Of a DNA stretch of 64,000 nucleotides, positions 17,461-44,392 are shown piece after piece (position 1 is the first letter of the stretch; every line of letters begins with the position of its first letter). The notes under the pieces are model-generated. The model was not told where the DNA came from. It saw only the letters and a program-made list of their open reading frames with translations, and did not search any database. Position numbers and translations under genes: made by a program. The stretch is taken from IMG/VR virus record IMGVR_UViG_3300021387_001106, positions 34,633 through 98,632 of that record; one strand, given 5' to 3'. This DNA comes from a virus (lineage: Duplodnaviria; Caudoviricetes).

Positions 17461-20400
17461 ATGGCAAGCAGGAAGGAAAAAATCGACTCGCTCAGGCGCT
17501 ACACGAACTTAATACAGAAGCAGACCGGCAGAGTCGTAAGACCCTACCGCATGGACGGCTATGTCAACATGCTCACCAAGTACGGCACGTCCCGTGATGC
17601 TTCGGAAAGATATGAGTTTAAACAGGAACCACCGGTACCGGATGAACAGCTCACTTCCTTCTACGAGGGGAACGGACTGTTCGCCAAGATCATAGACGCA
17701 CCGGCGGAAGAGGCCATCAAACACGGCTTTGAGCTGGAAGGGCTTCAGGACCAGAACATCGAGGACTTCTACACGGAAGCACTTGAAGAGCTGGACTGGG
17801 AAGAGACCATGATGACAGCAGTCAAATGGGCAAGGCTTTTTGGCGGTTCCATCGCTGTCATGATGATCAATGACGGCAGGGGTGTTGATGAGCCTCTCGA
17901 CTGGAAGAACATCACATCTATCGACGACATCAGGATATATGACCGTTCCCTAATACAACCAGACTACGGAAGCATGTTCTCCTACGACCCGGACGACCCG
18001 TTCGGGACAAGGGGGAGCCGGTTGGGTATGCCTGAATACTACGATGTCTACAGCCGGTACGGGAGCTTCCGGGTGCACGACTCCAGATGCCTTGTATTCC
18101 AGAACGGTATACTCCCTGAGAACACGAGCAATTCTGTCTATCAGTTGTGGGGTATGCCGGAGTACATCAGGCTCAACAGGGCGATACGTGACGCTGAGGT
18201 CGCACACGGAACGGCTCCAAAGATGCTCGACCGCTCCATACAGGCGGTCTACCGGATGAAAGACCTTGCAACAGAACTTGCTACAGAGGAAGGCGAGGAC
18301 AGGGTTCTCAGGCGTCTACAGACCATCGACATGGCAAGGGGGCTTTTAAACTCCATCACCATCGACAGCGAGGGCGAGGATTACGACTTCAGGCAATTTT
18401 CATTTACCGGCGTTTCCGAGGTCATCGACACGACATGCAACTTCCTGTCTGCATTGACTTCCATCCCACAGACCATCCTGTTCGGAAGGTCACCCGCCGG
18501 TATGAACTCCACGGGCATGGGAGACCTTGAGAACTGGTACAACTACCTTGAACGCATCCAGAACCGCATGATAAAGAAGAACCTGAGGTATCTTCTGAGC
18601 ATCATCTTTCAGGCGGGCGTATGTACCGGTGAGATAGATGAGGTCCCACCTATCAAGGTCAAGTTCAACCCGCTGTGGTCACTGTCCGATCAGGAAGAGG
18701 CGTCCCTTGAACAGATGAGGGCGCAGGTTGCGAACACCAATGCCAACACCGCTATGGTCTACGTCCAGATGCAGGCGCTCGACCCTTCTGAGGTCAGAAA
18801 GAAACTTGCGGATTCCGAGGAGTTTGATGTTGAGACTCTGCTCGACGAATATACCGAGGAGGAACTGGAAGAAAACGACCCTATGAAGAAACAGGCGGAA
18901 GGTGCTATGCCGGGTATGGAAGGCGGCGGTATGCCGGGAATGCCGGGGATGCCTGCAATGCCCGGTGGACCGGAAGGAGCACCGCCTGAAGGGGCACCGC
19001 CACAGGCACCGGATGCTATGGGCGGAACACCTACTGGAAAGGTTCAGCCTAATGACGGCCCTAAACCCGAAATGGCGCAGGGCGGCAAAGAAAAGGATAC
19101 GGATATTGGCGGGAACGCCCCGGCTGCTGCACCGGCAGCAACAAAACTTCCTGTTGATATGAGCGGGAAGGAAAAGGACAAAGCAGAGGAAGCTAAGGAA
19201 GAGCTCAAGAAGCCTGTAGACAAGGCTAAAGACAACACTCAGGAATCGACAGCTAAGCCAGAAGAAAAGGCAGAAGATGCAGAGGACACTCTGCGCAATG
19301 CATGGCTTGGTGTCGGGCCTGAAGAAGAAAAGCCCTCTGATAAAAAGATTATCAAAAAGCCAAAAAAGCCCGTCGACCCGCTCCCGGGGGATACCCTTCG
19401 GAACGCGTGGCTGGGAATCACTCCAAAAGAAGAAGAGGATGAGGAGGACACGCTCACAAAAGCATGGCATGGAACAGAACCGGTCGATACTGAGGATACG
19501 CTCAGGAACGCATGGCTCGGTAACATTCCCGTGAAACCGCCTCATGGCTCCAGGATCGTCCGTACACGCAAGGGGGATATTTCTATCAGGGACTTCCGTG
19601 CGGCGTCCAGAGAGGACGAAGAGAACCCTCTGACGGCAATGTACGACCATGAGATCACCGCCAGAAATGGCAAGACCTACAGGGCGTTTGAGGGCGAAGG
19701 CTACAAAGCCTATGGCGAGAGGATGCGTGAAAGCTCCCGTATGGATGCGGGTGCGCAGGGTGCAGTCGGCGTGTATGTCATCAAGGATGGCAAGATACTG
19801 ACAGGCATTCGTGGTGAAGGGGATGGACAATACCTTCTCTGCGGTCCCGGCGGACACATCGAAGAAGGTGAGACCCCCGGACAGGCTGCAATACGCGAGA
19901 CACAGGAAGAGTTTGGTATCACACCCATGGAGCTTATCCCGTTCGGGAAAGGGGAAAAGCAAAGCAACGGTCTACGGCCTGACCTGTTCCTATGTGTCAG
20001 GTTTGAGGGGAAACCCAAGTGCGATGAACACGAGATGCACAATCCGAGGTTCACAGCCATCGAAGAGATCGAGCACTCGGGCCGCCTGTTCAGGCCGTTT
20101 GAAAACGGCATCCAGAAGCTGATACAGGCAGTTACTGGAAAGAACATCCACGCAGATGATGAAAAGTGGATTACTGTCAACGGAACACACGTACTTGTTG
20201 ATGATGATGGAACCGCTAAAAACGGCGGCAAGCTCAAAGGAATGTCTTTTTCAAAAGCCGAGAGCGAGGAAAGCGCAAAGCAGACCAATGCTCCCGGCTC
20301 AAATAAAATACTCTTCCAACCGTCAAAGACTAAGATTAACAGGGAAATCTCTGATATAGCGGATAAGAGCACGCAGGATACGGTTGAAGATGACATTAAG

Positions 20401-21633
20401 AAGATTGGGAAGCTGCTTGACACACTTGAACCCGGCTCCGTAGTCACTGTCCCGGCAAATCTTGCGGGGGATGATAAGTACACCTATACAAAAGATGAAG
20501 ATGGAAGATGGGGTGGAAAAGGCACCAACGGAACATGGAAAGCTGAGGACATCGCGTGGGATTTTCTCTATGAAGACCCGAGGGAACGCGCATATATCAG
20601 CAAGTCCGCATTATCGGAAACTGAGAAAGAAAAAGACAGACAGAGCTATGAGGCACGGAATTTCCGCAATCAGGAATCCCCGTGGGCCGGTGACAACTCA
20701 TTGGCTCAAATGGCTGAGGTACAGCTTCAGAGGGAAGACCTGAAGAAAGCCGGTGAAGGCACCGTAGCGGTCGATAAGGATGGAAGACAGCTCCAATGCC
20801 ACGGAGATGGCGTATGGACAGACAGGGACGGAAACATCGTGAAGAATCCATCCGGGCTGAAAGTGGAAGGTGACTACTTCGATATAAACTGCGGATTGAA
20901 CGGCATGGATCCTATCGAAATAAGCAAGGTCAGGGACGTGTTCGATAAAATGCCACCGGATATTCAGGGTATATACGAAAAAACCTTCAGGGAACATGGC
21001 GTAAGACCGTCTGAGGAAGGATGGGACATCTCATATTTCAAACCGTCAGATGGCCGTGTATATCTCCGCGAGGGGTCGTCAGCGGGCACCTTCTTCCACG
21101 AGATGAGCCATGCGCTTGACAGAGGGGCCGTAGACATAGAGTACGTAAAAGAAAACGGAGAGAAATACAGGGTGACGTCTGCGGCGGAAAACCTTGACTG
21201 GCTTGCGCATCCGCTTAAAGAAAAGGGAAGAGAAGACTTCGAGACGATGGCAAAAATCGTCGGATTTAATACTAACGGGAAGGGATGGTTCGCCAACGAG
21301 AAAGAAGAACAGGCGTCCGTCCGACAGTTCATCGACTGGGCATATAAGTATTCCGATATACCGGGATTTGAATGTGTCAGCGATGCAGTAAGCGCAATGA
21401 CATATGACGTATGCGGGGCAAGCATATACTCTGGCGGTCATGACAGGCAGTATTGGACAGGCTCGTACCTTCAGGGCAGAAAGACATCTGCAACGAGCGA
21501 TGAATACTGGGCGAATTTCTGTGAACTTAAAGCGATGCGCTACGATACTGCTCTAAAACTCCTGAAAGTCATTACGCCGAACAGATATGCTGCGGCAGAG
21601 GCGACCTACAAAGAAGCCTTTAAGAAGAGGTAA
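17461..21633 (+). CDS. portal protein (DUF1073-like) fused to Nudix hydrolase and HExxH metallopeptidase-like domains
   Basis: N-terminal ~480 aa portal-like (KIIDAPAEEA, ARLFGGS, IPQTILFGRSPAG, FNPLW); Nudix box GGHIEEGETPGQAAIRETQEEFG; FFHEMSHALD. Confidence 0.85.
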   Translation: MASRKEKIDSLRRYTNLIQKQTGRVVRPYRMDGYVNMLTKYGTSRDASERYEFKQEPPVPDEQLTSFYEGNGLFAKIIDAPAEEAIKHGFELEGLQDQNIEDFYTEALEELDWEETMMTAVKWARLFGGSIAVMMINDGRGVDEPLDWKNITSIDDIRIYDRSLIQPDYGSMFSYDPDDPFGTRGSRLGMPEYYDVYSRYGSFRVHDSRCLVFQNGILPENTSNSVYQLWGMPEYIRLNRAIRDAEVAHGTAPKMLDRSIQAVYRMKDLATELATEEGEDRVLRRLQTIDMARGLLNSITIDSEGEDYDFRQFSFTGVSEVIDTTCNFLSALTSIPQTILFGRSPAGMNSTGMGDLENWYNYLERIQNRMIKKNLRYLLSIIFQAGVCTGEIDEVPPIKVKFNPLWSLSDQEEASLEQMRAQVANTNANTAMVYVQMQALDPSEVRKKLADSEEFDVETLLDEYTEEELEENDPMKKQAEGAMPGMEGGGMPGMPGMPAMPGGPEGAPPEGAPPQAPDAMGGTPTGKVQPNDGPKPEMAQGGKEKDTDIGGNAPAAAPAATKLPVDMSGKEKDKAEEAKEELKKPVDKAKDNTQESTAKPEEKAEDAEDTLRNAWLGVGPEEEKPSDKKIIKKPKKPVDPLPGDTLRNAWLGITPKEEEDEEDTLTKAWHGTEPVDTEDTLRNAWLGNIPVKPPHGSRIVRTRKGDISIRDFRAASREDEENPLTAMYDHEITARNGKTYRAFEGEGYKAYGERMRESSRMDAGAQGAVGVYVIKDGKILTGIRGEGDGQYLLCGPGGHIEEGETPGQAAIRETQEEFGITPMELIPFGKGEKQSNGLRPDLFLCVRFEGKPKCDEHEMHNPRFTAIEEIEHSGRLFRPFENGIQKLIQAVTGKNIHADDEKWITVNGTHVLVDDDGTAKNGGKLKGMSFSKAESEESAKQTNAPGSNKILFQPSKTKINREISDIADKSTQDTVEDDIKKIGKLLDTLEPGSVVTVPANLAGDDKYTYTKDEDGRWGGKGTNGTWKAEDIAWDFLYEDPRERAYISKSALSETEKEKDRQSYEARNFRNQESPWAGDNSLAQMAEVQLQREDLKKAGEGTVAVDKDGRQLQCHGDGVWTDRDGNIVKNPSGLKVEGDYFDINCGLNGMDPIEISKVRDVFDKMPPDIQGIYEKTFREHGVRPSEEGWDISYFKPSDGRVYLREGSSAGTFFHEMSHALDRGAVDIEYVKENGEKYRVTSAAENLDWLAHPLKEKGREDFETMAKIVGFNTNGKGWFANEKEEQASVRQFIDWAYKYSDIPGFECVSDAVSAMTYDVCGASIYSGGHDRQYWTGSYLQGRKTSATSDEYWANFCELKAMRYDTALKLLKVITPNRYAAAEATYKEAFKKR
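19282..19524 (+). repeat. four EDTLRNAWLG-type peptide repeats in the portal linker
   Basis: EDTLRNAWLG, GDTLRNAWLG, EDTLTKAWHG, EDTLRNAWLG. Confidence 0.85.
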
Positions 21634-21861: not shown

Positions 21862-22068
21862 ATGTATATACCGCATTATGATACAAAGGCAGACAGGTTG
21901 CCATCGGACGCCACTGCTGAAGAAAAGGGAAGGTTCGAGCGCAGCCACAATGGCTATGGATGGATGCTTTTTTATAAGGAGCTTTATCCAGACCTGTCTG
22001 TCCCATATATGCGGTGGGATGGTAAGGTAATTGACAGCACATGGCTGTCCTTTTTTGATGCCGTCTAA
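21862..22068 (+). CDS. small hypothetical protein
   Basis: GGAG/AAGG RBS, 68 aa. Confidence 0.55.
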   Translation: MYIPHYDTKADRLPSDATAEEKGRFERSHNGYGWMLFYKELYPDLSVPYMRWDGKVIDSTWLSFFDAV

Positions 22069-22087
22069 CCTGTTACAGGAGATGACT

Positions 22088-23251
22088 ATGGAACGGATAC
22101 AGGCGATAAAACTGAAATCCATACAGATACGCTATCGACTCAGACAGAGGATGGACGGCGGCCCGGGTTCTGGCAACTGGGGGCACGAGGGGAGACCCGG
22201 CAAGATCGGCGGATCGGCGGAAGGCGGCGGCACACATAACCGACAAAAGAACAGGTTCGGCGGCTATACCTCGTTCAGCAAATGGAGAAAAGAATCTGCG
22301 AGGAGCCACGCGCTTACGAGTCAGGACATAAAGGATGTCTACGACTTCGAAGACATTATCATTGTCGACAAAGACGGAAACCGATACCAGAGGAGCGGGC
22401 ACAACTTTGAGTGCAAAACGACCGGGGATAGAAGGGATTTCGCTATTGGGGATGAATGCCGGCTCATCATCCCGAACAAGCTCAGTCCGAATTACAAGGT
22501 CACCCGCGATGATAAGAAGGCAATGGCCTTGAATCAGGAACGGTTTGAAAGAGCGTTCTACCCGGAGGAAAGAGGCGATGCCGATACCAGATACAGGTCT
22601 GAAGCCGGGGAAATATGGAATGGATGCAGCGAAAAAGAAAAAGATTCCATGTATAGATATACCTCGTCGGAGTATAGGAGGATAAACAAAAATGTTCGCG
22701 GCGGTAATACCGATGACGAGGAGTGCAACGAGACCATAGCAGCTATCACGGATGTGATAGACAGGTCCGAATTGAGACAGGATAGTGTCCTCAGGAGAGG
22801 AATATCGCTGGGAGCCGCTGAGAAACTGTTCGGGCTGCCAGAGGGGTATCTGGAGGCCGGCAATCATGCCGATGAAGGGAACATCTCCATGGTCGGCAGG
22901 GTCGGAACTGATGATGCGTTCATGAGCTGCGGTTCATCCCGAGATTCCGGGAATGACCGTCAGGTTGTTCTGGAGATTCTGGCTCCTGAGGGAACCAAGG
23001 CCATGTATTGTGAACCGTTTTCCGCGCACGGCTTGGGTGACAGAAAACTGTGGGACGGGAAAAGCGGACAAGAATACTTTTCCTCTGAATGCGAGAGCCT
23101 TTTGCAAAGAGGAACCACTCTACAGGTCATCAGCCACGAGATGAAGGACTCGTTTGGGTTTACATACCATACGATGAGAGCGGTTATTTTAAGGCAGGAT
23201 ACAGGAAGTTCTGAATACAGTCAAAAGATAAAAAAGGCAAAGTGGAATTGA
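22088..23251 (+). CDS. VIP2/C3-like ADP-ribosyltransferase with RMD-GGPGSGNWGH leader
   Basis: YTSSEYRRIN..., LRRG, FMSCG, SECESLLQRG (R-S-ExE). Confidence 0.75.
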   Translation: MERIQAIKLKSIQIRYRLRQRMDGGPGSGNWGHEGRPGKIGGSAEGGGTHNRQKNRFGGYTSFSKWRKESARSHALTSQDIKDVYDFEDIIIVDKDGNRYQRSGHNFECKTTGDRRDFAIGDECRLIIPNKLSPNYKVTRDDKKAMALNQERFERAFYPEERGDADTRYRSEAGEIWNGCSEKEKDSMYRYTSSEYRRINKNVRGGNTDDEECNETIAAITDVIDRSELRQDSVLRRGISLGAAEKLFGLPEGYLEAGNHADEGNISMVGRVGTDDAFMSCGSSRDSGNDRQVVLEILAPEGTKAMYCEPFSAHGLGDRKLWDGKSGQEYFSSECESLLQRGTTLQVISHEMKDSFGFTYHTMRAVILRQDTGSSEYSQKIKKAKWN

Positions 23252-23296: not shown

Positions 23297-24406
23297 ATGC
23301 CATCAATTCAGAATGACTTGAAAAGGATCCGCCTTTCCCTTAAAAAACGAAGAGAAGACGGATATACGGGAGAAAAAACATGCACAGGCGCATATAAAAC
23401 GCATGGGAAAATTGACCGGGGGGCCGCAAGTGCTATAATAAAGTTGAAGGGGGGGAAGGTACGGGCAGATAGCTGCCAAAAAGGACAAGCGGACGGCGGA
23501 CCGGGAAGCGGAAACTGGGGACATGAAGGCAGGGACACAGGTGAACCCGGCGGTTCAAAGCCCGGTGGCGGAAAGAAAAACAGGACATACCGCAATAAAA
23601 TAGGTTTCATTGCAACAATGAAGAAAGGAGACGCTAAACTTCTCGAACGGACAGACAGAAAGGTGGCTAAGATGAGGAAAAAGCTCCCCGGGCTCATGAA
23701 AGAAAGCCATGAAACATGGGAAAGCTGTGTAGCCGCCAGCAAAAGCGGGTCTTCAATCCCTTCCGGGTCTGAGGCAAGAAAAGACAGAGTTTTAAAAGGG
23801 CTTTCGCCGGGGGCACAGAAAAGGTATGACCGAGTTTTCGAAGCAGAACAAAGGATAACAAAAGACCTTATCGGCATTGCGTCCGACAGTGGAACTGAGA
23901 TGTACGGCTTGGATTTTTCGCTGAAGAAGGGTTCCTCTGTGGTAGAGAAGGTCGCAAGGAAAAGAGCGGCGGATATTGCGCGTGAACTTAAACCTAAAAC
24001 AGACGAAGAATATGTATCTCAACTCGGGGACCTTGTCAGGTACACACAACTTTGTGACCATAACAAGATGGCAGACGTCGCAAAGGGCACGCTGTCTTCA
24101 CTGAAGGCAAAAGGATATGACGTAGTCGAGGTAGACAACAAGTGGCAGGATGAGAAGTCCACATACAAAGGATTTCACATAATCGCAAAGGATAAGAACG
24201 GACAGCGGTTTGAACTCCAGATACATTCGAAAGAGAGTATGGATGTCAAGGAGCTTAACCATGTGCAATATGAAGTTGCAAGGCAGCCAAAAGCCAGCGC
24301 TTATGTCAGGGATACGCTCGACCCACAAATGGCTGAAAGAACTGCAAAAATGAAGAAGCCAAAAGGGATGAACGATCCCGCCTTGAAGTCGTGGAAAAAT
24401 GAATGA
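23297..24406 (+). CDS. RelA/SpoT-family nucleotidyltransferase (small alarmone synthetase-like)
   Basis: KKGSSVVEK, DLVRYT, YKGFH, FELQIH correspond to SYN1-4-like motifs. Confidence 0.75.
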   Translation: MPSIQNDLKRIRLSLKKRREDGYTGEKTCTGAYKTHGKIDRGAASAIIKLKGGKVRADSCQKGQADGGPGSGNWGHEGRDTGEPGGSKPGGGKKNRTYRNKIGFIATMKKGDAKLLERTDRKVAKMRKKLPGLMKESHETWESCVAASKSGSSIPSGSEARKDRVLKGLSPGAQKRYDRVFEAEQRITKDLIGIASDSGTEMYGLDFSLKKGSSVVEKVARKRAADIARELKPKTDEEYVSQLGDLVRYTQLCDHNKMADVAKGTLSSLKAKGYDVVEVDNKWQDEKSTYKGFHIIAKDKNGQRFELQIHSKESMDVKELNHVQYEVARQPKASAYVRDTLDPQMAERTAKMKKPKGMNDPALKSWKNE

Positions 24407-24419
24407 AAGGGGGGATAAA

Positions 24420-24677
24420 ATGAGAGAAGTGACCTACTATCTGGCGGATAACTGCGGTAACATTATCCTCATGAAACGTGTGCGCGACCCTAAAAAAGGT
24501 ATTTTTACCGGATATATCTGGAACCCGCACAAATGGGTCGAGGCATGGGAGCTTTGTTGTGATTACTTCTACGGATACGAACCCGCCAAAGTAACAGATG
24601 AAGAGGGGGCCAAGGCTTACATGGTCGAGGCCGGTGTAACCGGGGAACAGGCAGAGGAGTTCCTGAAAGAGGATTGA
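24420..24677 (+). CDS. small protein, candidate immunity partner
   Basis: G-rich RBS; directly follows the synthetase. Confidence 0.6.
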   Translation: MREVTYYLADNCGNIILMKRVRDPKKGIFTGYIWNPHKWVEAWELCCDYFYGYEPAKVTDEEGAKAYMVEAGVTGEQAEEFLKED

Positions 24678-24847
24678 TGAACGAAAAAACGCAAAAGGGG
24701 GGAATAACCTTCCGACCCGGTAAAGACGGCAGCATAGAGGCTGTCAAGGATGGTAAAGTGATAGGGCATATCTGGACGAATGATGATGTGGTCGATACGA
24801 ACGAAACGGACGGTAGAACCAATACTGAGAACAGCACGGATAAATAA
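24677..24847 (+). CDS. 56-aa protein homologous to an internal module of the 25881 protein (not in the ORF track)
   Basis: TGATG overlap; ITFRPGKDGSIEAVKDGKVIGHIWTND. Confidence 0.7.
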   Translation: MNEKTQKGGITFRPGKDGSIEAVKDGKVIGHIWTNDDVVDTNETDGRTNTENSTDK

Positions 24848-24906
24848 TTCATACTAAGCCGGGGGCGGCTTAGAGGGGCAGATAAAAAGAATATATAGTG
24901 TTTTTT

Positions 24907-24932
24907 AAGCAGGGTATACACCCTGCTTTTTT
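24907..24932 (+). terminator. intrinsic terminator
   Basis: aagcagggt-atac-accctgctt plus T run. Confidence 0.75.
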
Positions 24933-24958
24933 ATTGCCCAAAAGAGCGTAGGGGAAGG

Positions 24959-25801
24959 ATGACAGAATACAAGAGCTTTTTCAAAACTGTCGGGGGCAAC
25001 GAGGGCAACAAGTGCCACTACCCGACAAGACTTGATAGCTACGGGTGTGGCTGCGCACATGACTGCAAATACTGCTATGCAAGGTCGCTGCTGGAGTTTC
25101 GCGGGCTGTGGCGTCCCGAGGACCCGTCTGTTGCTGATATAGGCAAGATACGGCGTAAATTGGATAAAGTGGAACCGGGGACGATATTGAGGCTCGGCGG
25201 AATGACAGACTGTTTTCAGCCGATGGAACGCAAACTGGCCATCACATATCAGGTGGTCAGGGAACTGAACAAGCGCCGTATCGGGTACCTGATCGTGACG
25301 AAATCCGCCATGGTTGCGGATGACCGGTACATCGGTGTCTATGACCCGGAACTTGCCCATATACAGGTGACCATTACGGCAACAGATGATGCCGTGGCGC
25401 TTGGATACGAGAAAGCGAGTCCAATTTCAGAGCGTATCAAAGCAGTCGAGAAGCTACAGATGAATGGTCTGGACGTGGCCGTAAGGCTTTCTCCATTCAT
25501 ACCTGAGTATGTAGATTTTGATGTTCTGAACAGCATCAAATGTGACAAGATACTTGTGGAGTTCCTCAGGTCAAATGCCTTTATCCGAAAGACATTCCCA
25601 ATAGACTACTCGGAATACACGGTGAAGCAGAACGGATACTGGCACATGTCGCTCGACAGGAAGAAATACTGGCTATCAAAGATAACGGGTTTCAACGAGC
25701 TGACGGTATGTGATGACGAGACAGAAGCATACGAATATTGGAAACAAAACGTCAACCCGAATCCTGATGACTGCTGCAATCTTCGGAAGGTTGCAATCTG
25801 A
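24959..25801 (+). CDS. radical SAM protein (spore photoproduct lyase-like)
   Basis: GCAHDCKYCYA (CxxxCxxC), GGMTDCFQP, IVTKS, RLSPFIP. Confidence 0.8.
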   Translation: MTEYKSFFKTVGGNEGNKCHYPTRLDSYGCGCAHDCKYCYARSLLEFRGLWRPEDPSVADIGKIRRKLDKVEPGTILRLGGMTDCFQPMERKLAITYQVVRELNKRRIGYLIVTKSAMVADDRYIGVYDPELAHIQVTITATDDAVALGYEKASPISERIKAVEKLQMNGLDVAVRLSPFIPEYVDFDVLNSIKCDKILVEFLRSNAFIRKTFPIDYSEYTVKQNGYWHMSLDRKKYWLSKITGFNELTVCDDETEAYEYWKQNVNPNPDDCCNLRKVAI

Positions 25802-25880
25802 AGGAAGAACTCAAAGAACATAGACGATGAACTATGGGACAGCAATGACTGTTCTTTTTTTTGCACAGAAGGAGGCGCGG

Positions 25881-28800
25881 ATGACCACGCTGGATTTCAA
25901 TAAGGCGGTAATGGCATTTGTGTTCGCCTACCGTGCTGGAAATATCGAGAACGATTCTACACACATGGACAACGCTTACGATGAATGGCTCGAAGAAAAC
26001 CTCGATAAGTTTGAAGACGACGATTCAGAGGTGGCATTTGCCCAATGGAAGAACAGCGAGGGGGAAAAGCCAAGGGACTGTGATGACATCGACATGGTCG
26101 AGGCAATGTGGTTGGAATACAAAGGGCGGAGGAAAGACGGAAAAGACGATGAGGAAGGACGCTGGATTACCACGGAAAACAAGCATAAGGTGCATATCAA
26201 TGAAGAAGGCGTCGCTGACAAAGGGAATCCACATGTCCTTGCCGTGATGAACGAGGGGGAGAAAAGTGCGAGGAATAACAGCAGCCCTAAGGGGACGGCA
26301 AAGCACAAGATCGTTAATGGAAAAGATATTTCTGAATCTTACAGCGGTGAAGGAACCATAACGTCTGTCATACACGAACAGGGATTTGATGGGGTGCCTA
26401 AAGTCGTTTCGGATGATGAGTTTGATGAAGCTGTCAAAGCAAGCGGTTTTGTCGCTCAGAGGACATATTCATCAGAGTCGCCTGAGGTTCTGGATGCATA
26501 CCGGGAAGCACTTTACAGCGGGGAATGGTATGTGGAGTGTACTTATGGAAAGTCAGCATTTGGAAGGGGTATGTATACCGTATCCGATGCCTCGGGGACT
26601 ATAACAGAGGCTGCGGAAGAAGAGGTTGCGAAATATCGAAAGTATGGCCAACATAGCTATACGGAAACGATGACGCTTGCCCCGGGGGCCAAGATAGCAG
26701 ATTACAGAAAAATTGCAGAAGATTGGGAAGATGGCTTTAATCACTACAATGACCTTGAGGAAATAAAAGCCTTAGAGAATAGGGCTCAGGAAGATATTGA
26801 TAAAAAAATAAAAGGACTGGGCAAAAGAGGAAAAGAGTATCTTGATTGGGCAAAGCCTTTAGAAGAAGCCTTTTACAAAGAACAATTTAAGGTAAATTGG
26901 AAAGACGAAAAACAGATAGAAGAATACAACGGGCGGTATAAAAAATTTTACGAGGAAAAGAAAAGAAGGCTCAGCATGTTTGACCCGGATACTGCTCTTG
27001 CATTGGATAAGCCTCATAAGGCAGCTGAGAAAAGATTCAGGGAATTAGAAAAGGAGAAGTTCAAAAAAGGCATTGAGTTGCGTAAAAGATTCAAAGACAT
27101 CAACGCTTATGCAGCGTCGTTGGGATACGATGCGGTCAACGTACCCCACGGAAAGGGGCTCTTTTACACAATCATCCTGAACCGAACGAAGCTCATCATT
27201 AAAGATAAGCGAAATCGGAAAGATGATGAAGATGACAAGCACATCACCTTCCGCCCGGGAAAAGACGGACAGATGTTGGCTGTAAAAGACGGAAAAGTGA
27301 TTGGCTCGGTCTGGACAAACGATGTGCAGTCAGACGATATGCAACATGATTCCGATGAAAGCTCTGGTCCGGTGGAAAGCCTTGGGGACAAGCTCAGAAA
27401 ATTTAGGATGATCCGCAGAAAATATAGGCACGATGCATCCTTTGGAGACGAACCTGTTGATGAACTTATTGATGATTTCGGCCTTGGTGATGACGAAGAG
27501 TGGATAACAGTAAATGGCACGCATATACTCCTGAATCAAGAGGGCAAAGCGGTGAACGGCGGCGACCTTGCCGGGAAGGACTTCTCAAATGCGAAAAGCG
27601 AGCCGACCGTCGCACGCCGTCCTACACCGGAAGTCGGGAAGAGAAAGTCGACGGACTTCCTTCCACTGCATTCCTACAGGGATACAGAAACGTTTAAGGA
27701 CGCAGTGGCCTCTTATAAAGAAGCAAGTGAAAAAGCCGATGAGCTGTGGGCAAAAAGAAAAGAACTTGAAGAAGCTGTCAAAAGCGAGAGCCGACCGAAA
27801 CCGAAAGATGAATGGGATGAGGAAGATGAGTACCAGTCACTGATAGGGAAAAGGCCGAGGATATACACCGAAAAAGGAAAGAAACTCCAAGACGAGTTAT
27901 CAAAAGTCGAGAAGGAGTGGTTTAAACAGAAAAAAGCCAATGACGAAGCATCTGAAAAGCTCGATGCCATGAAAGAGCAGGAACATCAGCGTCAGGCTGC
28001 CGCCTATAAGCCGAACAAGTTCAAGGAAGCTAAAAAGGATGACTATGAAGGGTTCACGCTCGACAAGACCAGCAATTCATTTGGTGATGAGTACCTTCAG
28101 AACGGCAAGGGCAGGATCGTAGAGATGTCACCGAGGGAGTACCTTGAACGGTGTGCTTACGAGATATTCCACAACGGCACAATGGAAAGCACCATGGGGG
28201 CTGTTGACGAAAAGACAACGGACAAATACGCGGAGCAAATGAAGAACGGCGAGAAGTTCGACCTTCCATACCTGAACTACAAGGACATGGGACAGGAGGG
28301 AAGGCACAGGGCTGTAGCTGCATACAAAGCCGGTATCGAAACAATGCCGGTGCTCATTATCGGGGACCCGAAACACAGGAAAGATTCCAAACGACATGAG
28401 CGTATGGATGAAGAACCAGAAGAATGGATTACCGTGAACGGTAACCACATACCGCTTGATGGCGATAAGAAGCCTATCGGCGGACAGATGAAAGCGCTTG
28501 GGAAAGCAGCTCCAAAAGCAAAAGCCCGTCCTGCACACGGGGTGGTATCCAAAAAGACGTCACTCACTCCTGCTCAAAGGAAGCATTATTCGGACGAGCT
28601 CGAACGGATAACAGAAGCTTTCCAGAAGGAGAGGGATTTCCAGAAGAGTGTTAATCCAAAAGTGAAGGACTACGACCCGACCCCGTTTATTGAAAGCGAA
28701 AAGCGAGCAAAAGAACTCCGTGCGGAGGGGGAACGCCTCTGTGGGGAAATGCCGGCGGGGACAATTATCACTAAGGGCACCGAACTGTATGAGAAGACAG

Positions 28801-31130
28801 ATGACGGAAAATGGACAATGACCAAACCGGGAATCAGAAGGACGATCGAAAATTCGAGTGCGGCTGATTTCATAGGCGGCTATACAGATAACTCTTCCAA
28901 TTACGGGCCAAAGCTCGTGGAGAGCACGGATGAGGCAGAACAGCTTGAAGACATCTCCATGCACGACAACAGCACGTATGGGGACTGGGCTGCTGACCTC
29001 AACGGAAAGGCTCGTAAAGACCTTGTCAAGCGAGCAAAGAAAGACCCTGAGTTCAAGGAGCTGGTCGATTCCATAGTCCTTTATACAGAAGGTGGATATG
29101 TCGACCAAAGGAAAGCACTCGAAGCGGCAACGGAGACCGGACTGAAAGATGTCGATGCTCAGACAGTAGGAATGTACGCAAACGATACCATCTACAAAAT
29201 ACGGGATCTGTGGAAAGGACAGGACCTGACAGGCAGTCAGGCATCACTTGCGGGGGGCATGGCGCACCTCACGGGTGTCATCAATGCCGCAGACCCGGTT
29301 GAGAAGCCGCTGTTCCGCGCTGCTCAGGATAGGAGCATCGCAAAGACCGGGGAACAAGAACCATATGTTCCACCAAAGCCGGGTGATGTTATTTCCATAA
29401 CAGCCCCGACTTCCTTCACCGACAGCAAGGATGTTGAAACAGAAATCTCCCGGGGGAAAATGGGTGATGTCATCCACTATGAACTGGAACCCGGGGCAAA
29501 GGCCGTAAACGTAGCGGAGCTGTCACGGTATAAACAGTCAGAGTATTTGACATCTGGAAACTTCGAGGTTGTATCGGTTGATACGGAAACTCATCCATAC
29601 CCTGTTTTCAGGGACTCAGACATCACACCTGCTATACAGAAAAGAGGCGTTAAGGAAGACCAGTGGGGCAACAGATATTGCGAAAGATACGTCTGCACTA
29701 TAAAGCTCCGCCGAGTTGGTGATACAAACCTCACCGGTAAAAAAGATTCTGAAGAAGAGTATCTTGTCTACAACGGGCACTTCGACGAACGAATGGTCTT
29801 GTCTGGCGTCAGAGGGGATGCTGAGCCCGACAGTTGGATTACACTGAAGAACGGCAACCATATACCACTTGATAAGTCTGGAAAGGCTATAGGAGGCGCT
29901 GGGGGCTGGGCAGAAGGAAAAGATTTCAGCGGGGCAAAGAAGAAAACCAATGGTACCGCCGATTCCCTCACAAAGCGTGTAAAGGATGCGTACGGGAAAC
30001 CTGATTACGTTGAAGTGGCGAGTGCATTCAGAAAAGCGCTGAAGGATATGCCGGTTGGAGCATCTGTGAAAAGCGGTTATTACACATACACAAAGACTGG
30101 CGATAATGAGTATGAGTACGAGTGGAAGCCCGGCCAGAAGACAACAGTGAATGAGAACTCGGTCGTCAATGGACAGGATTTCTTTGACCCGGAAAAAGCA
30201 CCGGTGTTCAAAGACCCCGTCGGAGGGCCTGAAGATTCTCACGAAGTTAGAGAGCCAAAGGAAAGACCATCCTCTAATAAGGCTATAAGCATAAAACCAA
30301 AACTTGAGCACGCTAATTCTGGGAGCGTCGTGTTCGATAATAATGGCAATGTTTATGAAAAACAAGAAGATGGAGATTATCTAAGCCTTGGCAGCGGGGA
30401 AATATTATCCGCAGAAGAACTGACTGATAAGGGCGCTGAATTAGCGGAGTATACCGGGAAAACATCTTTTGAATATGGGGATGTTAGTCCAGACGTAGCG
30501 CAAAGCAGATATGAGGATTTAATAAAAAATCAATTCCGCAATGAAGGAAAAGCAACGCTCAACTCCGAAGAGTTCGAATCTATGGTCAATAGCGTATTAC
30601 ATTATGGAACAGGGGGTGAGTGTCAGATGATACTTGCCACACAAGATCCTGATGCTTACGCAGACATACCTGATATGGGCTTGAGTGGACGATATGAGGA
30701 GTACGCAAAAGAAGCAGATAGACTCGAAAAATTCATTGAACTGTCAAATAAATACCCCGGCACTATTTACAGGGGCATGTCATTTAACGACTCGATTCCG
30801 GGACAAAAAAAGGTTGTCGAGGACCTGATTTCGAATCTCAAACCCGGCAACGAAATAACAATGGGACATATTTCGAGTTGGTCTTCCAACGAAGGAACAG
30901 CAAGGAGTTATTCTTTAGGAGCGGTTGACCTTGAGCTGGAAAGCGGAAACAATTACTCGGTTATATATGAATGCGATAATCACAAATACGCAACAGACCT
31001 TAGCGGAATAAACCCCGAAGGTGAATGCATAGCCACAAAAGATGCCCGTTATCGTATTCGAAGCGTAGATTATAAATATGACGAGTCCTTGGAATGCCAT
31101 GTATACAAAGTCAAACTGGAGGAAATCTGA
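25881..31130 (+). CDS. 1749-aa modular (polyvalent-type) protein: four W-motif modules, three ART-like domains, one ParB-like domain
   Basis: AAGGAGG RBS; FGRGMYT..GYDAV; QEGRHRAVAA; LFRA..TSFT..QSEYL; IYRG..SSWSS..EGECI. Confidence 0.8.
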   Translation: MTTLDFNKAVMAFVFAYRAGNIENDSTHMDNAYDEWLEENLDKFEDDDSEVAFAQWKNSEGEKPRDCDDIDMVEAMWLEYKGRRKDGKDDEEGRWITTENKHKVHINEEGVADKGNPHVLAVMNEGEKSARNNSSPKGTAKHKIVNGKDISESYSGEGTITSVIHEQGFDGVPKVVSDDEFDEAVKASGFVAQRTYSSESPEVLDAYREALYSGEWYVECTYGKSAFGRGMYTVSDASGTITEAAEEEVAKYRKYGQHSYTETMTLAPGAKIADYRKIAEDWEDGFNHYNDLEEIKALENRAQEDIDKKIKGLGKRGKEYLDWAKPLEEAFYKEQFKVNWKDEKQIEEYNGRYKKFYEEKKRRLSMFDPDTALALDKPHKAAEKRFRELEKEKFKKGIELRKRFKDINAYAASLGYDAVNVPHGKGLFYTIILNRTKLIIKDKRNRKDDEDDKHITFRPGKDGQMLAVKDGKVIGSVWTNDVQSDDMQHDSDESSGPVESLGDKLRKFRMIRRKYRHDASFGDEPVDELIDDFGLGDDEEWITVNGTHILLNQEGKAVNGGDLAGKDFSNAKSEPTVARRPTPEVGKRKSTDFLPLHSYRDTETFKDAVASYKEASEKADELWAKRKELEEAVKSESRPKPKDEWDEEDEYQSLIGKRPRIYTEKGKKLQDELSKVEKEWFKQKKANDEASEKLDAMKEQEHQRQAAAYKPNKFKEAKKDDYEGFTLDKTSNSFGDEYLQNGKGRIVEMSPREYLERCAYEIFHNGTMESTMGAVDEKTTDKYAEQMKNGEKFDLPYLNYKDMGQEGRHRAVAAYKAGIETMPVLIIGDPKHRKDSKRHERMDEEPEEWITVNGNHIPLDGDKKPIGGQMKALGKAAPKAKARPAHGVVSKKTSLTPAQRKHYSDELERITEAFQKERDFQKSVNPKVKDYDPTPFIESEKRAKELRAEGERLCGEMPAGTIITKGTELYEKTDDGKWTMTKPGIRRTIENSSAADFIGGYTDNSSNYGPKLVESTDEAEQLEDISMHDNSTYGDWAADLNGKARKDLVKRAKKDPEFKELVDSIVLYTEGGYVDQRKALEAATETGLKDVDAQTVGMYANDTIYKIRDLWKGQDLTGSQASLAGGMAHLTGVINAADPVEKPLFRAAQDRSIAKTGEQEPYVPPKPGDVISITAPTSFTDSKDVETEISRGKMGDVIHYELEPGAKAVNVAELSRYKQSEYLTSGNFEVVSVDTETHPYPVFRDSDITPAIQKRGVKEDQWGNRYCERYVCTIKLRRVGDTNLTGKKDSEEEYLVYNGHFDERMVLSGVRGDAEPDSWITLKNGNHIPLDKSGKAIGGAGGWAEGKDFSGAKKKTNGTADSLTKRVKDAYGKPDYVEVASAFRKALKDMPVGASVKSGYYTYTKTGDNEYEYEWKPGQKTTVNENSVVNGQDFFDPEKAPVFKDPVGGPEDSHEVREPKERPSSNKAISIKPKLEHANSGSVVFDNNGNVYEKQEDGDYLSLGSGEILSAEELTDKGAELAEYTGKTSFEYGDVSPDVAQSRYEDLIKNQFRNEGKATLNSEEFESMVNSVLHYGTGGECQMILATQDPDAYADIPDMGLSGRYEEYAKEADRLEKFIELSNKYPGTIYRGMSFNDSIPGQKKVVEDLISNLKPGNEITMGHISSWSSNEGTARSYSLGAVDLELESGNNYSVIYECDNHKYATDLSGINPEGECIATKDARYRIRSVDYKYDESLECHVYKVKLEEI

Positions 31131-34435: not shown

Positions 34436-34448
34436 CGTGGAGGAAATG

Positions 34449-35381
34449 ATGGAAAACAGGATTGATAAAACCATCGCGAGAATCAGAAAAGACCATAGAA
34501 CCCGAATGGACGCTGAGGAAAAATGGATAACGGTCAATGGAACACATGTAAAGGTCGATAAAGAGGGAGAGCTTAGTGGGGCAGTTGGCAAGAAGATAAG
34601 CTCCACATCAAAGACTACAAAGAAGTCATCCGGGCCTTCTAAAAAAGGTGTTTCCTCAGCAGCAAAGAGGATTACTGACATCATTAAAAAGATAGATGAT
34701 GGCAGTGTCCCGGATATGAGTGGAGCTGAACAGATCATGGATGAAGTAAAAAATCTACCAGATGGTTCAGTTATAAATCTTTCACTTTTCGGCAGTGATA
34801 TGGAATACACGAAAGGCAACGGGGGGTGGACAACGAACGGCGTTGATGTAGACGTGGATGAGCTTTTTAACGACATTTACGATGGAAAAAATCTAAAAAT
34901 AACACAGGGCAAAAAAAGCGAGAAAAATGGTAAGAATGCTTATTCGCCCGGATTAAAAGGGTACAACAAACTTATAGAAGACACGATGTCGAAAAAAGAG
35001 CCTGCGGAAAGAAGGGCATTTCTTGAAGCAAATGCACACTGGCTCAATGGAAAGCCAAAAGAATCGACAGACTACATAAAAAATCCTGACAACATGACTA
35101 AGAATCAAATGCTTGATGCCGCAAGTGATATTGCATACAAGGGGCAACCCGGGGACGTAATAGAAGTAAAGACGAAAGATCGCGGTGGAATTACATCAAC
35201 GTCAAGGTATATAAGAACTGACAAATATAACTGGATAGACGAAGGACAACTCTATAATTTAATGAATAATGCAACCGCTGGAAGACAAAATAAGTCTTCT
35301 CAAAATGAAATGTTTAGGGAAATTAAATATTTCATTGATAACGGAGAAATGCGTGGAATGAAATTTCACCGGTATTCATGA
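34449..35381 (+). CDS. putative head cargo protein (RMD + WITVNG motif), function unknown
   Basis: GGAGG RBS; TRMDAEEKWITVNGTHV. Confidence 0.7.
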   Translation: MENRIDKTIARIRKDHRTRMDAEEKWITVNGTHVKVDKEGELSGAVGKKISSTSKTTKKSSGPSKKGVSSAAKRITDIIKKIDDGSVPDMSGAEQIMDEVKNLPDGSVINLSLFGSDMEYTKGNGGWTTNGVDVDVDELFNDIYDGKNLKITQGKKSEKNGKNAYSPGLKGYNKLIEDTMSKKEPAERRAFLEANAHWLNGKPKESTDYIKNPDNMTKNQMLDAASDIAYKGQPGDVIEVKTKDRGGITSTSRYIRTDKYNWIDEGQLYNLMNNATAGRQNKSSQNEMFREIKYFIDNGEMRGMKFHRYS

Positions 35382-41178: not shown

Positions 41179-42771
41179 ATGAAACTGAAAAGGGTGATAC
41201 GCCTTGACAGTATGCCACTAAACCGGGCGTCATTTACACCGGAAGGATTCCTGATGGATACGCCTATACTGACGTGTACGGGTATCTTTGAATACACAAA
41301 TCCTGACGGCTCTGTGAGAAAAGAACTTCGTTTGCCAGAGGAGGTCTTTTCGAAAGAAAGCCTTGCGTCCTATGAGGGTTCGCCAATCATCATAAGCCAT
41401 GACGCAGGGTTGATCACAAAGGACAATGTCGCTGAGAATGAGATAGGAACCATTCTGACGAAAGGCTTCCGTGACGGAGACAATGTCAGGGCAAAAATCG
41501 TAATCCATGACACGGACGAGATGAAGGAAAGTGGACTGAAGGAACTTTCCCTTGGCTACAACCTTGACCTCGATGAAACTCCCGGGGAATGGAACGGAGA
41601 ACCGTATGATGCGGTTCAGCGGAATATCCGCATAAACCATCTGGCACTTGTCAGAGAGGCAAGGGCCGGGGAACAGGCACGTTTGAACATCGATGGCAAA
41701 GGTGCTGAAAAGAAAGGAGAAGACATAATGGGTTACAGAAAACTGACCAAGACCAGAACAAGGGCAAAGACAAGAAGAGTGAGACGCTCTGATGGCATTC
41801 TCTCTCCTGATGAGCTGAAAGAGGCGATCAAGGAGTACAGGAAACGTCATCCCGAAGCCGGTCAGGGCGGCAACAAGGATGAGGATGACGAAGAGAAGAA
41901 ATATGCGATCCCCGCTGTTGAGCAGGACGACGACGATGTCTCCCCTGAGGAAGCAGCAGCCGAGAAGATCAGGCAGGAAATGCAGGCGAAGCTCGATGCC
42001 GAGGAGGATGACCTCGCTCAGGCAAACGAGACCATTCAGCATCAGGACGAGGACATCCAGACCCTTCTGGACATCATCGACACCCTGCTTGCGGAGCGCG
42101 ATTTCAACGGCTCCAAGACTGATTCCGACGATGAGACTCTCCCCACTGAGGAAGAGAACACCGATGAAGATGAGGAGGTGATCCCAGAGGACGAAAACAC
42201 CGACGAGGACGAGGAGTTCGCTGACGAGGAGAACACCGACGAGGATGAGGAGTTCACCGACGAGGAGAACACCGACGAGGACGAAGAGTTCCTTGACGAG
42301 GAGAACTCCGACTGCGACGACGAGGAGCTGAAGGAAGACGACGATGAGGAAGAGGAGCTCATCGAGGACGATGCAGACGAGGACATCCCGGATGCAACCA
42401 AGGCCGAGGCTGCCGTGATGAACGCTGACAGCATCGACAGGATCGTCCGTGACCGCGTCAAGCTGGGCATCGTTGCCGACAAGCTGCATCTCCGTGGACT
42501 GGAGAACATGTCCATGAGAGCCGCCAAGAAGGCAGTCATCCGCGTGGTCCGTCCTTCCATCAATCTTGACGGCAAGGGCAACACCTACATCAATGCCATG
42601 TTCGATCTGGCCTGCGATGATGTGAAGGTCCGTTCCCGCAAGACCACCCGGTACCAGAGGAAGCAGATGTTCAACAAGGATTCCCGCAGAGCGGTATCCA
42701 GAAGGGGCAACTCTGCTGAGGATGCACGCAAGAAGATGATCGCGCGTCTTCAGAAGAAGAGAAACAAATAA
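41179..42771 (+). CDS. DUF2213 prohead protease fused to an acidic scaffold
   Basis: [37 protein letters not shown]. Confidence 0.85.
42148..42330 (+). repeat. tandem ~33-36 bp repeats encoding E(E/D)ENTDEDEE in the scaffold
   Basis: About five units visible in both DNA and protein. Confidence 0.85.
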
Positions 42772-43312: not shown

Positions 43313-44392
43313 ATGGCTAAGAAAAGACACACATCCTATGACAGGGCTGACCTGAAAGCCCTTCGTAATTCTGGTATCCCTGCGACCATCATGGCCTCTG
43401 CCGGTACCAGATTTGACAGCGTGGACGACGCGTCTGTCTTCTTCGCTCGTGAACTCGACCACGTCAAGGCACAGTCCTATGACGTTGAGTATCCTGAGCT
43501 GACTGCTCTGTCCCTGTTCCCCCAGACCTCTGAGGCGGATGAAGGCGCAGAGACCATTACCTACTACACCTACGATAACGTCGGTCTCGCGAAGGTTCTG
43601 GACAACTACTCCACCGACCTTCCCAGAGCAGACGTGATCGGTAAGCCCAGCTTTGCAAGCATCAAATCCATCGGTGACAGCTACGGCTACTCCGCACAGG
43701 AGATGCGTGCATCCCGGCTGGCCGGCAAGTCCCTTGACGCAAGAAAAGGTGAATCCGCTCGTTATCAGGTCGACAACCTGATCAACCGTATCGCATGGGC
43801 CGGTGACAAGGGCTCCGGTCTGATGGGCGTCCTGTCTGAGGGCCAGAACATCCCTCTCTATCTTGTCGCAGCCGGCGGCACCACTGGCAAGACCAAGTGG
43901 ACCGAGAAGAGCGCAGACGAGATTCTGGACGATGTCAACGGCATGGCGAAGCAGGTCGCAAAGGTGACCAAGAACGTCGAGCGCCCCGACACCCTGTGTG
44001 TCCCTGCTGACGTTTACATGGACATCTCCACCAGACGTATCCCGGATACAAGCACCACCGTCCTGAAGTTCGTTCTGGATCACGCTCCCTACATCAAGGA
44101 AGTCATCTCCACCGCCGAGCTGGATGCTGATTCCCCTGAGACCAACCCTTATGCAGTGACCGGCGTCACCTATGAGGTTGACGGCCAGAACTTCACTACC
44201 ACTGAGGGCGTGGGCGTTGCGTTCCTGTTCAAGAACGACGTTCGGAAGCTGGCACTGGAGAACCCTATGCCCTTCCGCCAGTATCCGATCCAGGTCCGCA
44301 ACCTTGACACCGTTGTCCCCTGCGAGGCAAGGACTGCCGGTGTTATCGTTTACTACCCTCTGTCCTGCCTGATCGCGGTCGGCGTCTGCTGA
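43313..44392 (+). CDS. major capsid protein (DUF2184-like)
   Basis: FFARELDHV, DLPRAD, YGYSAQE, ends VYYP; strong codon bias; followed by a terminator. Confidence 0.9.
   Translation: MAKKRHTSYDRADLKALRNSGIPATIMASAGTRFDSVDDASVFFARELDHVKAQSYDVEYPELTALSLFPQTSEADEGAETITYYTYDNVGLAKVLDNYSTDLPRADVIGKPSFASIKSIGDSYGYSAQEMRASRLAGKSLDARKGESARYQVDNLINRIAWAGDKGSGLMGVLSEGQNIPLYLVAAGGTTGKTKWTEKSADEILDDVNGMAKQVAKVTKNVERPDTLCVPADVYMDISTRRIPDTSTTVLKFVLDHAPYIKEVISTAELDADSPETNPYAVTGVTYEVDGQNFTTTEGVGVAFLFKNDVRKLALENPMPFRQYPIQVRNLDTVVPCEARTAGVIVYYPLSCLIAVGVC

Follow-up and report, generated by a model that had tools for sequence, protein, structure and literature searches.

A small module encoded both as a free gene and behind an uncharacterised domain of a predicted phage cargo polyprotein

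Polyvalent proteins, known from phages and conjugative elements, are portal- or MuF-fused proteins which, in the portions of the account by Iyer, Burroughs, Anand, de Souza and Aravind drawn on here (2017, PMC5512222), are predicted to be packaged and injected, with proteolytic processing proposed and ascribed to internal zincin-like peptidase domains. A term search of that text retrieved no mention of a small partner that can be excised and also has a gene of its own. Cargo (polyvalent) proteins of phages are predicted widely and bench studies of them are few; they raise the question of how dozens of copies of potentially harmful enzymes are made late in infection without self-poisoning.

The prohead cleavage motifs of T4 and phiKZ end in Glu, as in (L/I)-x-E and A-x-E. 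The pieces removed in systems of this type are regarded as targeting peptides or propeptides, and we know of no removed T4 or phiKZ piece that is a domain-specific peptide with its own free gene. The T4 internal proteins and Alt, and likewise the ejection proteins of phiKZ and SPN3US, are capsid-packaged effectors whose precursors a prohead protease trims at short consensus sites (papers on such systems include PMC5694885, PMC10052503 and PMC9026906). Also described are phage-borne polymorphic toxins, including the MuF toxins (PMC5576092) and Bxa with Bsi and BAH (PMC11699363); according to the latter source, Bsi acts by direct binding.

The locus presented here lies in a window of 64,000 nucleotides (positions 34,633 to 98,632 of the IMG/VR virus record IMGVR_UViG_3300021387_001106; Duplodnaviria, Caudoviricetes), the source phage of which has been termed a gut/rumen phage. 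Like the polyvalent proteins outlined above, its polyprotein is a large head-module protein that strings together unrelated effector domains and for which packaging is predicted, but the processing enzyme presumed here is a prohead protease rather than an internal peptidase domain. It resembles the T4 and phiKZ-type cargo in that a prohead protease is encoded in the same module, and short candidate sites hint at cutting; the candidate motif ends in Asp and not in Glu. As in phage toxin-immunity pairs, a putative effector and a small candidate cognate protein are encoded close by. Classical immunity genes are separate and generally lie downstream of the toxin, whereas the candidate partner here is part of the same polypeptide and its free copy lies upstream, beyond a terminator (and, in this phage, a radical SAM gene). 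By analogy only, a small attached domain with a putative cleavable linker also recalls zymogen prodomains and intramolecular inhibitors (e.g. protease propeptides), to which the module has no sequence or fold relationship.

The two module copies and their surroundings

When the whole 98.6-kb virus record was searched with the free gene product P0001, 2 places only were retrieved, namely P0001 itself (E 3.6e-35) and an internal segment of the polyprotein P0002 (E 9.3e-13), the latter value placing the match far beyond chance. The free module and P0002 residues 473-499 are identical at 22 of 27 residues and at 58 of the corresponding 81 bases. Nei-Gojobori counting gave a pS of 0.78 (saturated) and a pN of 0.145, and therefore points to an old duplication whose protein sequence has been maintained, rather than to a repeat of recent origin; by these counts, both copies are old and under purifying selection. 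A lineage-specific shift, by two residues, of the W of the G-W-V position is common to both copies in the window, as would be expected if the free and embedded copies fit one partner.

An earlier note on this DNA had described a module of ~30 aa present both as a free gene at 24677-24847 and inside the polyprotein at ~27241, bracketed by RKD and HD sites. These observations hold, with the internal copy beginning at nt 27243, R464-K465-D466 before it, and Q506-H507-D508 and R534-H535-D536 after it. The note had further placed the internal copy directly after the first ART-like domain; the position was correct, behind the domain here termed dom1, but the ART-like label was not established, as no Pfam ART match and no ART among the PDB fold matches were obtained. 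The coordinates of all features are given in Table 1.

Table 1. Features of the free module gene, the cargo polyprotein gene and the protease gene, in window coordinates
Feature	Position	Strand	Remarks
Shine-Dalgarno-like AAGAGGA	24667..24673	+	immediately 5' of the P0001 ATG; sequence reading
Free module gene P0001 (56 aa)	24677..24847	+	ATG 24677, stop 24847
Module core, free copy (27 aa)	24704..24784	+	three-stranded beta-meander predicted by analogy with the embedded copy
Intrinsic terminator	24907..24936	+	hairpin 24907-24928, 9-bp stem, T run; closes the operon whose last gene is P0001
Cargo polyprotein P0002 (1767 aa)	25827..31130	+	four WIT-led units; database gene call begins at M19, nt 25881
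WIT-type address motif opening unit 1	26163..26234	+	HMM 43 bits; three short strands in AF2 model
dom1 (P0002 aa 150-462)	26274..27212	+	conserved alpha/beta domain with long helical-hairpin insert; uncharacterised
R-K-D putative processing site (R464-K465-D466), dom1/module border	27216..27224	+	D invariant across the 28 listed junctions
Embedded module (P0002 aa 473-499)	27243..27323	+	match to P0001; strands in AF2 model
Q-H-D putative processing site (Q506-H507-D508) after the module	27342..27350	+	analogous x-x-D and acidic run in most homologues
Internal basic 'leader' (aa 519-536) ending in R-H-D (R534-H535-D536, 27426-27434)	27381..27434	+	
WIT motif opening unit 2	27501..27572	+	55.8 bits
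Prohead (head maturation) protease, DUF2213 family	41179..42771	+	PHROG 530 'head maturation protease' 9.9e-81; DUF2213 1.9e-33

To judge from its sequence context, P0001 looks like a real gene, because its start codon overlaps the stop of the preceding ORF (TGATG), the AAGAGGA element stands before it and a strong terminator hairpin lies downstream. This hairpin is near-identical at the corresponding place in a related phage (L057), ahead of the polyprotein gene of that phage. In the window, P0001 is followed in order by the terminator, the radical SAM gene (24959-25801) and the polyprotein gene. P0001 lacks a basic leader, a WIT or GGPGSGN address motif and an x-x-D site.

P0002 is encoded between the portal and protease genes and holds several effector-type units in one head-module polypeptide. 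Its C-terminal domain matches a 'minor head protein' PHROG, and in its homologues NUDIX, Ntox50, Gln_amidase, PARP and ATLF-like domains are joined to portal or MuF. The internal leader of P0002 is similar to the leaders at the N-termini encoded by single-unit cargo genes and shows where the next fused unit begins. An acidic run accompanies R-K-D ahead of the embedded module. In the AF2 model of the dom1 unit, the module is predicted as strands 375-378, 383-388 and 391-397 of the 420-aa construct (pLDDT about 76-83), and the linker joining it to dom1 as disordered (pLDDT < 50). The module was also considered as a diverged WIT motif and rejected; hmmsearch --max with a profile built on this phage's 11 WIT motifs recovered 11/11 of them (41-56 bits) and 0/2 module copies, leaving only a positional analogy.

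The identity of dom1 and the junction motif

dom1 carries nearly invariant R, Y, E and D residues together with an N-R-x-K motif, conservation that suggests an enzyme. Neither dom1 nor the module was matched in Pfam, PHROGs or NCBIfam, and the two are additional families without any model in these collections; this distinguishes them from the polyvalent families (PMC5512222, in the portions used), Pfam including ART-PolyVal. With E-values up to 10 allowed, the ART-PolyVal HMM (PF18760) matched nowhere in the entire virus record, and a Pfam search did not detect it in the dom1-only proteins P0036 and P0044; its sole match, in P0013, is at aa 765-863, outside the dom1 of that protein (936-1325). 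Other domain families of the 2017 polyvalent-protein study are presumably covered by Pfam as well.

Searches by PDB Foldseek and VIA with the whole dom1 unit and its N-core returned no ART (best Z for the N-core, 3.9), and a PDB sequence profile search returned coiled-coil noise only; dom1 was not assigned to the ARTs. Weak hints of an ART came from Foldseek against BFVD with dom1, where 7 of the top 50 entries are predicted phage structures with an ART-PolyVal label (E 0.008 to 1). A lead for dom1 in the ESM Atlas scored 0.85, and assignment of dom1 to MuF was rejected (hhalign probability 0.2).

The dom1-module junction consists of an acidic, otherwise variable linker in which [RHNKQ]-x-D keeps a constant register behind the final strand of dom1; among the 28 junctions listed the D is invariant, with R, H, N, K or Q two residues earlier. 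The major capsid protein has exactly one [RHNKQ]-x-D motif, at residues 33-35, which is conserved in two relatives. Motif conservation suggests that the x-x-D sites may be cleaved, and the presumed enzyme is the DUF2213 protease of the window, which has an acidic scaffold-like tail.

Pairing with dom1 and free module genes in related phages

The survey of relatives comprised 27 related cargo proteins with 34 dom1 copies and 31 embedded modules. A module was located within 45 residues of the dom1 C-terminus in 29 of the 34 dom1 copies, and 30 of the 31 embedded modules were placed behind dom1, with none behind the other domains of the same polyproteins. An association of module homologues with this domain family, on which the earlier reading depended, was thus found. 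The more divergent dom1 copies of the MuF-fused proteins P0009 (two copies), P0027 and P0028 have no module, hence the module is not required for the dom1 fold; in P0008 the only module sits ahead of dom1 and not behind it, and the pairing therefore survives a change of order. Mean pairwise identities of 0.51 for the module and 0.58 for the dom1 core indicate an about equal evolutionary rate, and the two sets of identities are weakly correlated (r about 0.3). Because related phages repeat the pairing, the module is probably the dedicated partner of dom1 in phage cargo proteins, as far as comparison of sequences can indicate. The co-occurrence that characterises toxin-immunity systems is likewise present, both in these dom1 ends and in the free gene next to the dom1 polyprotein gene, as seen in the window and a 100-kb relative (G001) and presumed on two further contigs.

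Word-based searches with P0001 alone matched nothing except P0001; GenBank phages gave no DNA match and no tblastn match with either P0001 or the dom1 unit, and the ESM Atlas gave no usable match with P0001 as query. The module family was found only via the dom1 region and an exhaustive profile search. The latter revealed free small module genes (P0032, P0034, P0037, P0042 and P0033) of 47-63 aa in at least four other clusters, whilst the whole unit, consisting of leader, WIT motif, dom1 and module, was found as single genes in P0036 (429 aa) and P0044 (405 aa). The proposal that polyprotein segments correspond to autonomous genes is thereby borne out for the whole unit and for the module. Four further proteins from the profile search (P0031, P0035, P0038 and P0039) were discarded as unrelated, having many short matched stretches and failing the refined HMM. 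Scans with the module alignment gave one locus each from metagenomes (L067) and GTDB (L068), both judged to be chance matches, in which a look-alike strand pair lies within a 441-aa protein without a WIT motif or dom1.

An ortholog-like free ORF is present in a related phage at L057:8388-8579. In G001, a free ORF lies between the corresponding terminator and the polyprotein gene, just upstream of the latter; G001 encodes two dom1 and three modules, compared with one dom1 and two modules in this phage. The complete relative G002 harbours the dom1-module unit and no free module gene, from which the free gene appears dispensable. P0032 is placed with P0007, and P0037 with P0006 and P0044, indirectly, by presumed common contigs. 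In one protein a free-type module is fused to the polyprotein N-terminus. At the G-W-V position, W occurs in 0 of 7 free-type modules versus 24 of 28 embedded ones (hypergeometric about 5e-5, an estimate that ignores phylogeny), and the free copies have neither the leader nor the address motifs found in packaged units. The free copy, which the earlier note had suggested might be an orphan, instead belongs to a distinct conserved lineage of free genes whose position beside the polyprotein gene is conserved.

The role of the module

The best explanation of these data, which we advance tentatively, is that the module is a dom1-specific partner peptide freed by the prohead protease and accompanied by an unpackaged free paralogue. 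It would be a small autonomous beta mini-domain, the dedicated partner of the effector domain dom1 in the capsid-cargo proteins of this phage group. In the packaged form it would be made in cis and held behind dom1 by the disordered acidic linker with [RHNKQ]-x-D, until the prohead protease, inside the procapsid, cut both flanking sites and so liberated some 40 residues as a peptide. Nearly the same peptide would come from the free gene and is expected to be kept in the cytoplasm of the producing cell because P0001 has neither leader nor address motif. Binding and masking of dom1 is the most likely function, in that the module would mask dom1 (or otherwise restrain it) until processing and the free copy would cover dom1 in trans; we infer both the physical contact and its inhibitory direction. 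Some observations sit less easily with a partner role, namely that P0001 is an extra copy where one dom1 meets two modules, that it lies upstream of the polyprotein gene beyond a terminator, unlike classical immunity genes, that module identity follows dom1-core identity weakly and that G002 has no free gene.

More doubtful is a safety-catch form of toxin-immunity design, with the immunity peptide encoded inside the precursor of the effector that it restrains. If this were true, dom1 would be silent in the producer, the peptide would be cut off only in the sealed capsid so that an armed enzyme is injected into the next host, and the unpackaged free paralogue would shield the producer cell or a lysogen from stray or incoming dom1; a phage effector would then be activated by maturation of the capsid. 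A peptide family tied to one effector domain, with candidate protease sites and a free gene, offers a testable handle, and the system could reveal whether capsid maturation arms an effector and what the cleavage rule of DUF2213 proteases is.

Amongst the alternatives, the one that survives best has the module not as an inhibitor but as a tail that supports or stabilises the structure of dom1 (as an intramolecular chaperone or by completing the fold with a sheet), with the free copy supplying this piece in trans or kept as a spare. The pairing data fit it equally, AF2 is confident on the module within the unit (pLDDT about 80) and the module evolves at about the rate of the dom1 core. We consider it unlikely nonetheless, given that dom1 exists without a module (P0009, P0027 and P0028) or without one behind it (P0008, where the module is on the opposite side), and that the tether is predicted to be disordered and bears a conserved cleavage-type motif.

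It is less probable again that the module is an oligomerisation element, the three-stranded meanders of different chains (embedded with free, or embedded with embedded) forming a larger sheet that organises the cargo in the capsid or after ejection. Such a role would leave the strict dom1 association without a reason, and free copies without packaging motifs would rarely meet packaged ones, even though a 27-residue sheet has little core of its own and the lineage-specific features that a phage's free copy shares with its embedded copy would fit mutual binding. Similarly improbable is the reading that, like WIT, the module serves cargo packaging, sorting or protease docking in general and bears no specific relation to dom1. 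The module does occupy the same type of slot as the WIT motifs, after x-x-D and an acidic run, and each has three short strands in the AF2 model; however, it follows dom1 only and not the other polyprotein domains, the HMM of 11 WIT motifs misses it, and its free copies are leaderless.

It is very improbable that the free ORF confers immunity against a toxin encoded in its own operon (the Bxa-like ART at 22031-23251 or the protein resembling RelA/SpoT at 23297-24406) and is similar to the polyprotein only incidentally. These toxin-like genes lie two to three genes upstream of P0001, and the small binding immunity protein Bsi is documented for Bxa (PMC11699363, in the portion used), but a related phage has its ART homologues about 10 kb away with the free module still beside the polyprotein and has nothing homologous to the catalytic part of the 23297 product, and L060, L063 and L064 carry homologues of both toxin-like genes without a module. 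We give equally little credence to the free ORF being left over from a partial polyprotein duplication, untranslated or without function, for although it is short, matches no library family and is missing from G002, 22 of 27 residues are kept despite saturated synonymous sites, the start is coupled and preceded by a Shine-Dalgarno-like element, and free-gene clusters elsewhere have a common free-type signature and a conserved position.

The radical SAM gene between the terminator and the polyprotein gene was also tried as an anchor to relatives and set aside; at the 53 IMG/VR loci retrieved, 0 of which have neighbouring cargo genes or a module, it occurs in a different context.

Two copies of the module in the head gene region

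The source virus record, of which the window represents bases 34633-98632, is 98.6 kb in length and judged 96% complete, and the module region was located in the head module of the phage genome. The 27-aa module was found only twice in the whole virus record, as a free gene (P0001) and within the polyprotein P0002. The two copies are identical at 22 of 27 residues but at only 58 of 81 bases, with saturated synonymous sites (pS 0.78) and a low pN (0.145), showing that the duplication is old and that both copies have been maintained at the protein level. P0001 has a coupled start (TGATG) with an SD-like element (AAGAGGA). R-K-D and an acidic run stand before the embedded copy, and behind it come Q-H-D and then, past a basic leader-like stretch, R-H-D; the bracketing RKD and HD sites described in the earlier note were thus confirmed. 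The leader-like stretch (27381-27434), which itself ends in the R-H-D, is similar to those found at the N-termini of cargo genes made of one unit (P0036, P0044, and those at 34437 and 35445), hence P0002 looks like whole genes joined head to tail, leaders included.

Features of the module region and head genes, in gene order
Feature	Position (nt)	Remarks
Large terminase	13620-16052	putative intein
Portal fused to NUDIX and more	17461-21633	
Bxa-like ADP-ribosyltransferase	22031-23251	
Protein with weak RelA/SpoT-like match	23297-24406	
ORF		92 aa
Free module ORF, P0001	24677-24847	56 aa
Terminator		strong; 60 nt 3' of P0001
Radical SAM gene	24959-25801	between free module and polyprotein genes
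Polyprotein P0002		1767 aa
Embedded module	27243-27323	P0002 residues 473-499
More cargo genes and MuF		downstream of P0002
DUF2213 prohead protease		
Cement protein		
Major capsid protein	43313-44392	

The longest P0002 ORF starts at 25827, whilst in the database the gene (P0003, 1749 aa) is called from M19 (25881); between these candidate starts falls a terminator-like hairpin (25836-25855), so the later may be the real one. The radical SAM gene is missing at the corresponding position in the related phage G001 and is present in 53 further IMG/VR contigs in an unrelated context, thus behaving as a mobile insert. Residues 229-325 of the terminase matched Hom_end and LAGLIDADG_3, flanked by an N-terminal ATPase-like part and Terminase_6N/6C domains, and from sequence this insert resembles a homing-endonuclease intein.

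Pairing of the module with the preceding domain

No relatives were found when the 56-aa P0001 alone was utilized as a query, and residues 110-560 of P0002 retrieved 27 related cargo proteins. An HMM built on both window copies located the module in most of these, with up to three per protein. Three kinds of match were added by an exhaustive profile search covering 1.84 billion representatives, including free small proteins (P0032, 63 aa; P0034, 57; P0037, 51; P0042, 47; and P0033, 147 aa, with two modules) and genes consisting of a single unit, P0036 (429 aa) and P0044 (405 aa), which encode a leader, WIT address motif, dom1 (the conserved domain at P0002 residues 150-462), an acidic linker with x-x-D, and the module. 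Four further proteins from this search were false positives unrelated to the module. As the module stands alone in small proteins and the whole unit as P0036 and P0044, the data support the earlier proposal that segments of the polyprotein were once, or elsewhere still are, genes of their own.

A total of 34 dom1 copies were identified in related cargo proteins, 29 with a module no more than 45 residues behind the dom1 C-terminus, and 30 of 31 embedded modules were placed after dom1. These patterns support a putative functional tie of the module to its preceding domain, as had been suspected. The sole exception in order was P0008, in which a free-type module follows the N-terminal leader and precedes both the first WIT motif and a dom1 lacking a trailing module. 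More distant dom1 copies in the MuF-fused P0009, P0027 and P0028 are without a module, indicating that dom1 can exist without it. At the junction, the last dom1 strand (L-N-R-T-K motif) leads into a linker that is acidic and variable save for an Asp, invariant and fixed in register, with R/H/N/K/Q two residues earlier; behind the module there is usually a comparable motif, and then the next unit's leader/address motif or the protein end. On an 11-kb fragment (L058), a dom1-bearing ORF stops directly behind dom1, and an overlapping 48-codon frame (L058:8682-8825) encodes a degenerate peptide resembling the module (HMM E 0.017), an arrangement that could reflect gene fission, frameshift or assembly error.

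Free module genes and a possible mechanism

G001 (100 kb; portal 65% identical) carries a 64-aa free ORF directly upstream of a near-identical terminator, followed by a polyprotein with two dom1-module units, the same position as in the window save for the inserted radical SAM gene. Contigs of matching length tentatively place P0032 alongside polyprotein P0007, and P0037 alongside P0006 and P0044. The complete relative G002 encodes one dom1-module unit and no free copy, which makes the free gene accessory. At the G-W-V position, none of seven free-type modules (counting the P0008 N-terminal copy) has Trp, against 24 of 28 embedded modules; in both window copies the Trp is shifted within the strand by two residues, a trait specific to their lineage. 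Rather than an orphan, as first suggested, the free copy belongs to a lineage of free genes that is conserved and lacks packaging motifs.

The most economical mechanism, which we favour tentatively and at somewhat less than even chance, is that the module would be a dom1-specific partner peptide tethered in cis behind dom1, that the prohead protease would release it, and that the unpackaged free paralogue would act on the same partner in trans. Masking would most likely be the effect on dom1, its direction being one that we infer. A stabilising tail of dom1 is a rather unlikely alternative reading of the module, and an oligomerisation element or a generic signal are each more doubtful still. 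That the free ORF is an immunity gene for a neighbouring toxin is highly improbable, since in G001 some 10 kb separates the free ORF from the Bxa-like ART genes and the catalytic part of the RelA/SpoT-like protein has no homologue; a dead remnant is equally improbable.

The system belongs to the polyvalent/capsid-cargo theme (PMC5512222) and resembles T4/phiKZ-type protease-processed cargo, but differs in a candidate motif ending in Asp and in a small, domain-specific, putatively excisable peptide deployed both embedded and free.

Predicted structure and further candidate motifs

Neither dom1 nor the module was found in Pfam, PHROGs or NCBIfam. In an AF2 model of the 420-aa unit (28 aligned sequences; mean pLDDT 78), three short strands make up the WIT motif, dom1 has an alpha/beta core into which a helical hairpin of roughly 100 residues is inserted, the junction is disordered, and the module comprises three strands (pLDDT about 80). 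Helices dominated the PDB matches of this unit, and the dom1 N-core folded alone (pLDDT 77) matched only generic alpha/beta sandwiches (best Z 3.9). Amongst predicted viral structures, uncharacterised phage proteins ranked first (E down to 2e-7), ahead of seven weak entries labelled ART-PolyVal (E 0.008 to 1); the PF18760 HMM did not match dom1, and the ART-like label given previously is thus a lead, not a result.

The Bxa-like and RelA/SpoT-like proteins each begin with a basic helix ending R-x-D, then a motif starting GGPGSGN, a second address type that stands in for WIT in many homologous portal-NUDIX fusions (consensus of alignments A4 and A5). The motif [RHNK]-x-D-[SGADE] occurs once in the capsid protein (T-R-F-D-S, residues 32-36) and is kept in two relatives (L069 and L070, 97% and 73% identical), which fits an N-terminal propeptide that the prohead protease would remove. 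The C-terminal half of that protease/scaffold protein (42000-42500) contains an array of nearly identical acidic N-T-D-E-D-E-E repeats, each including a candidate cleavage motif.
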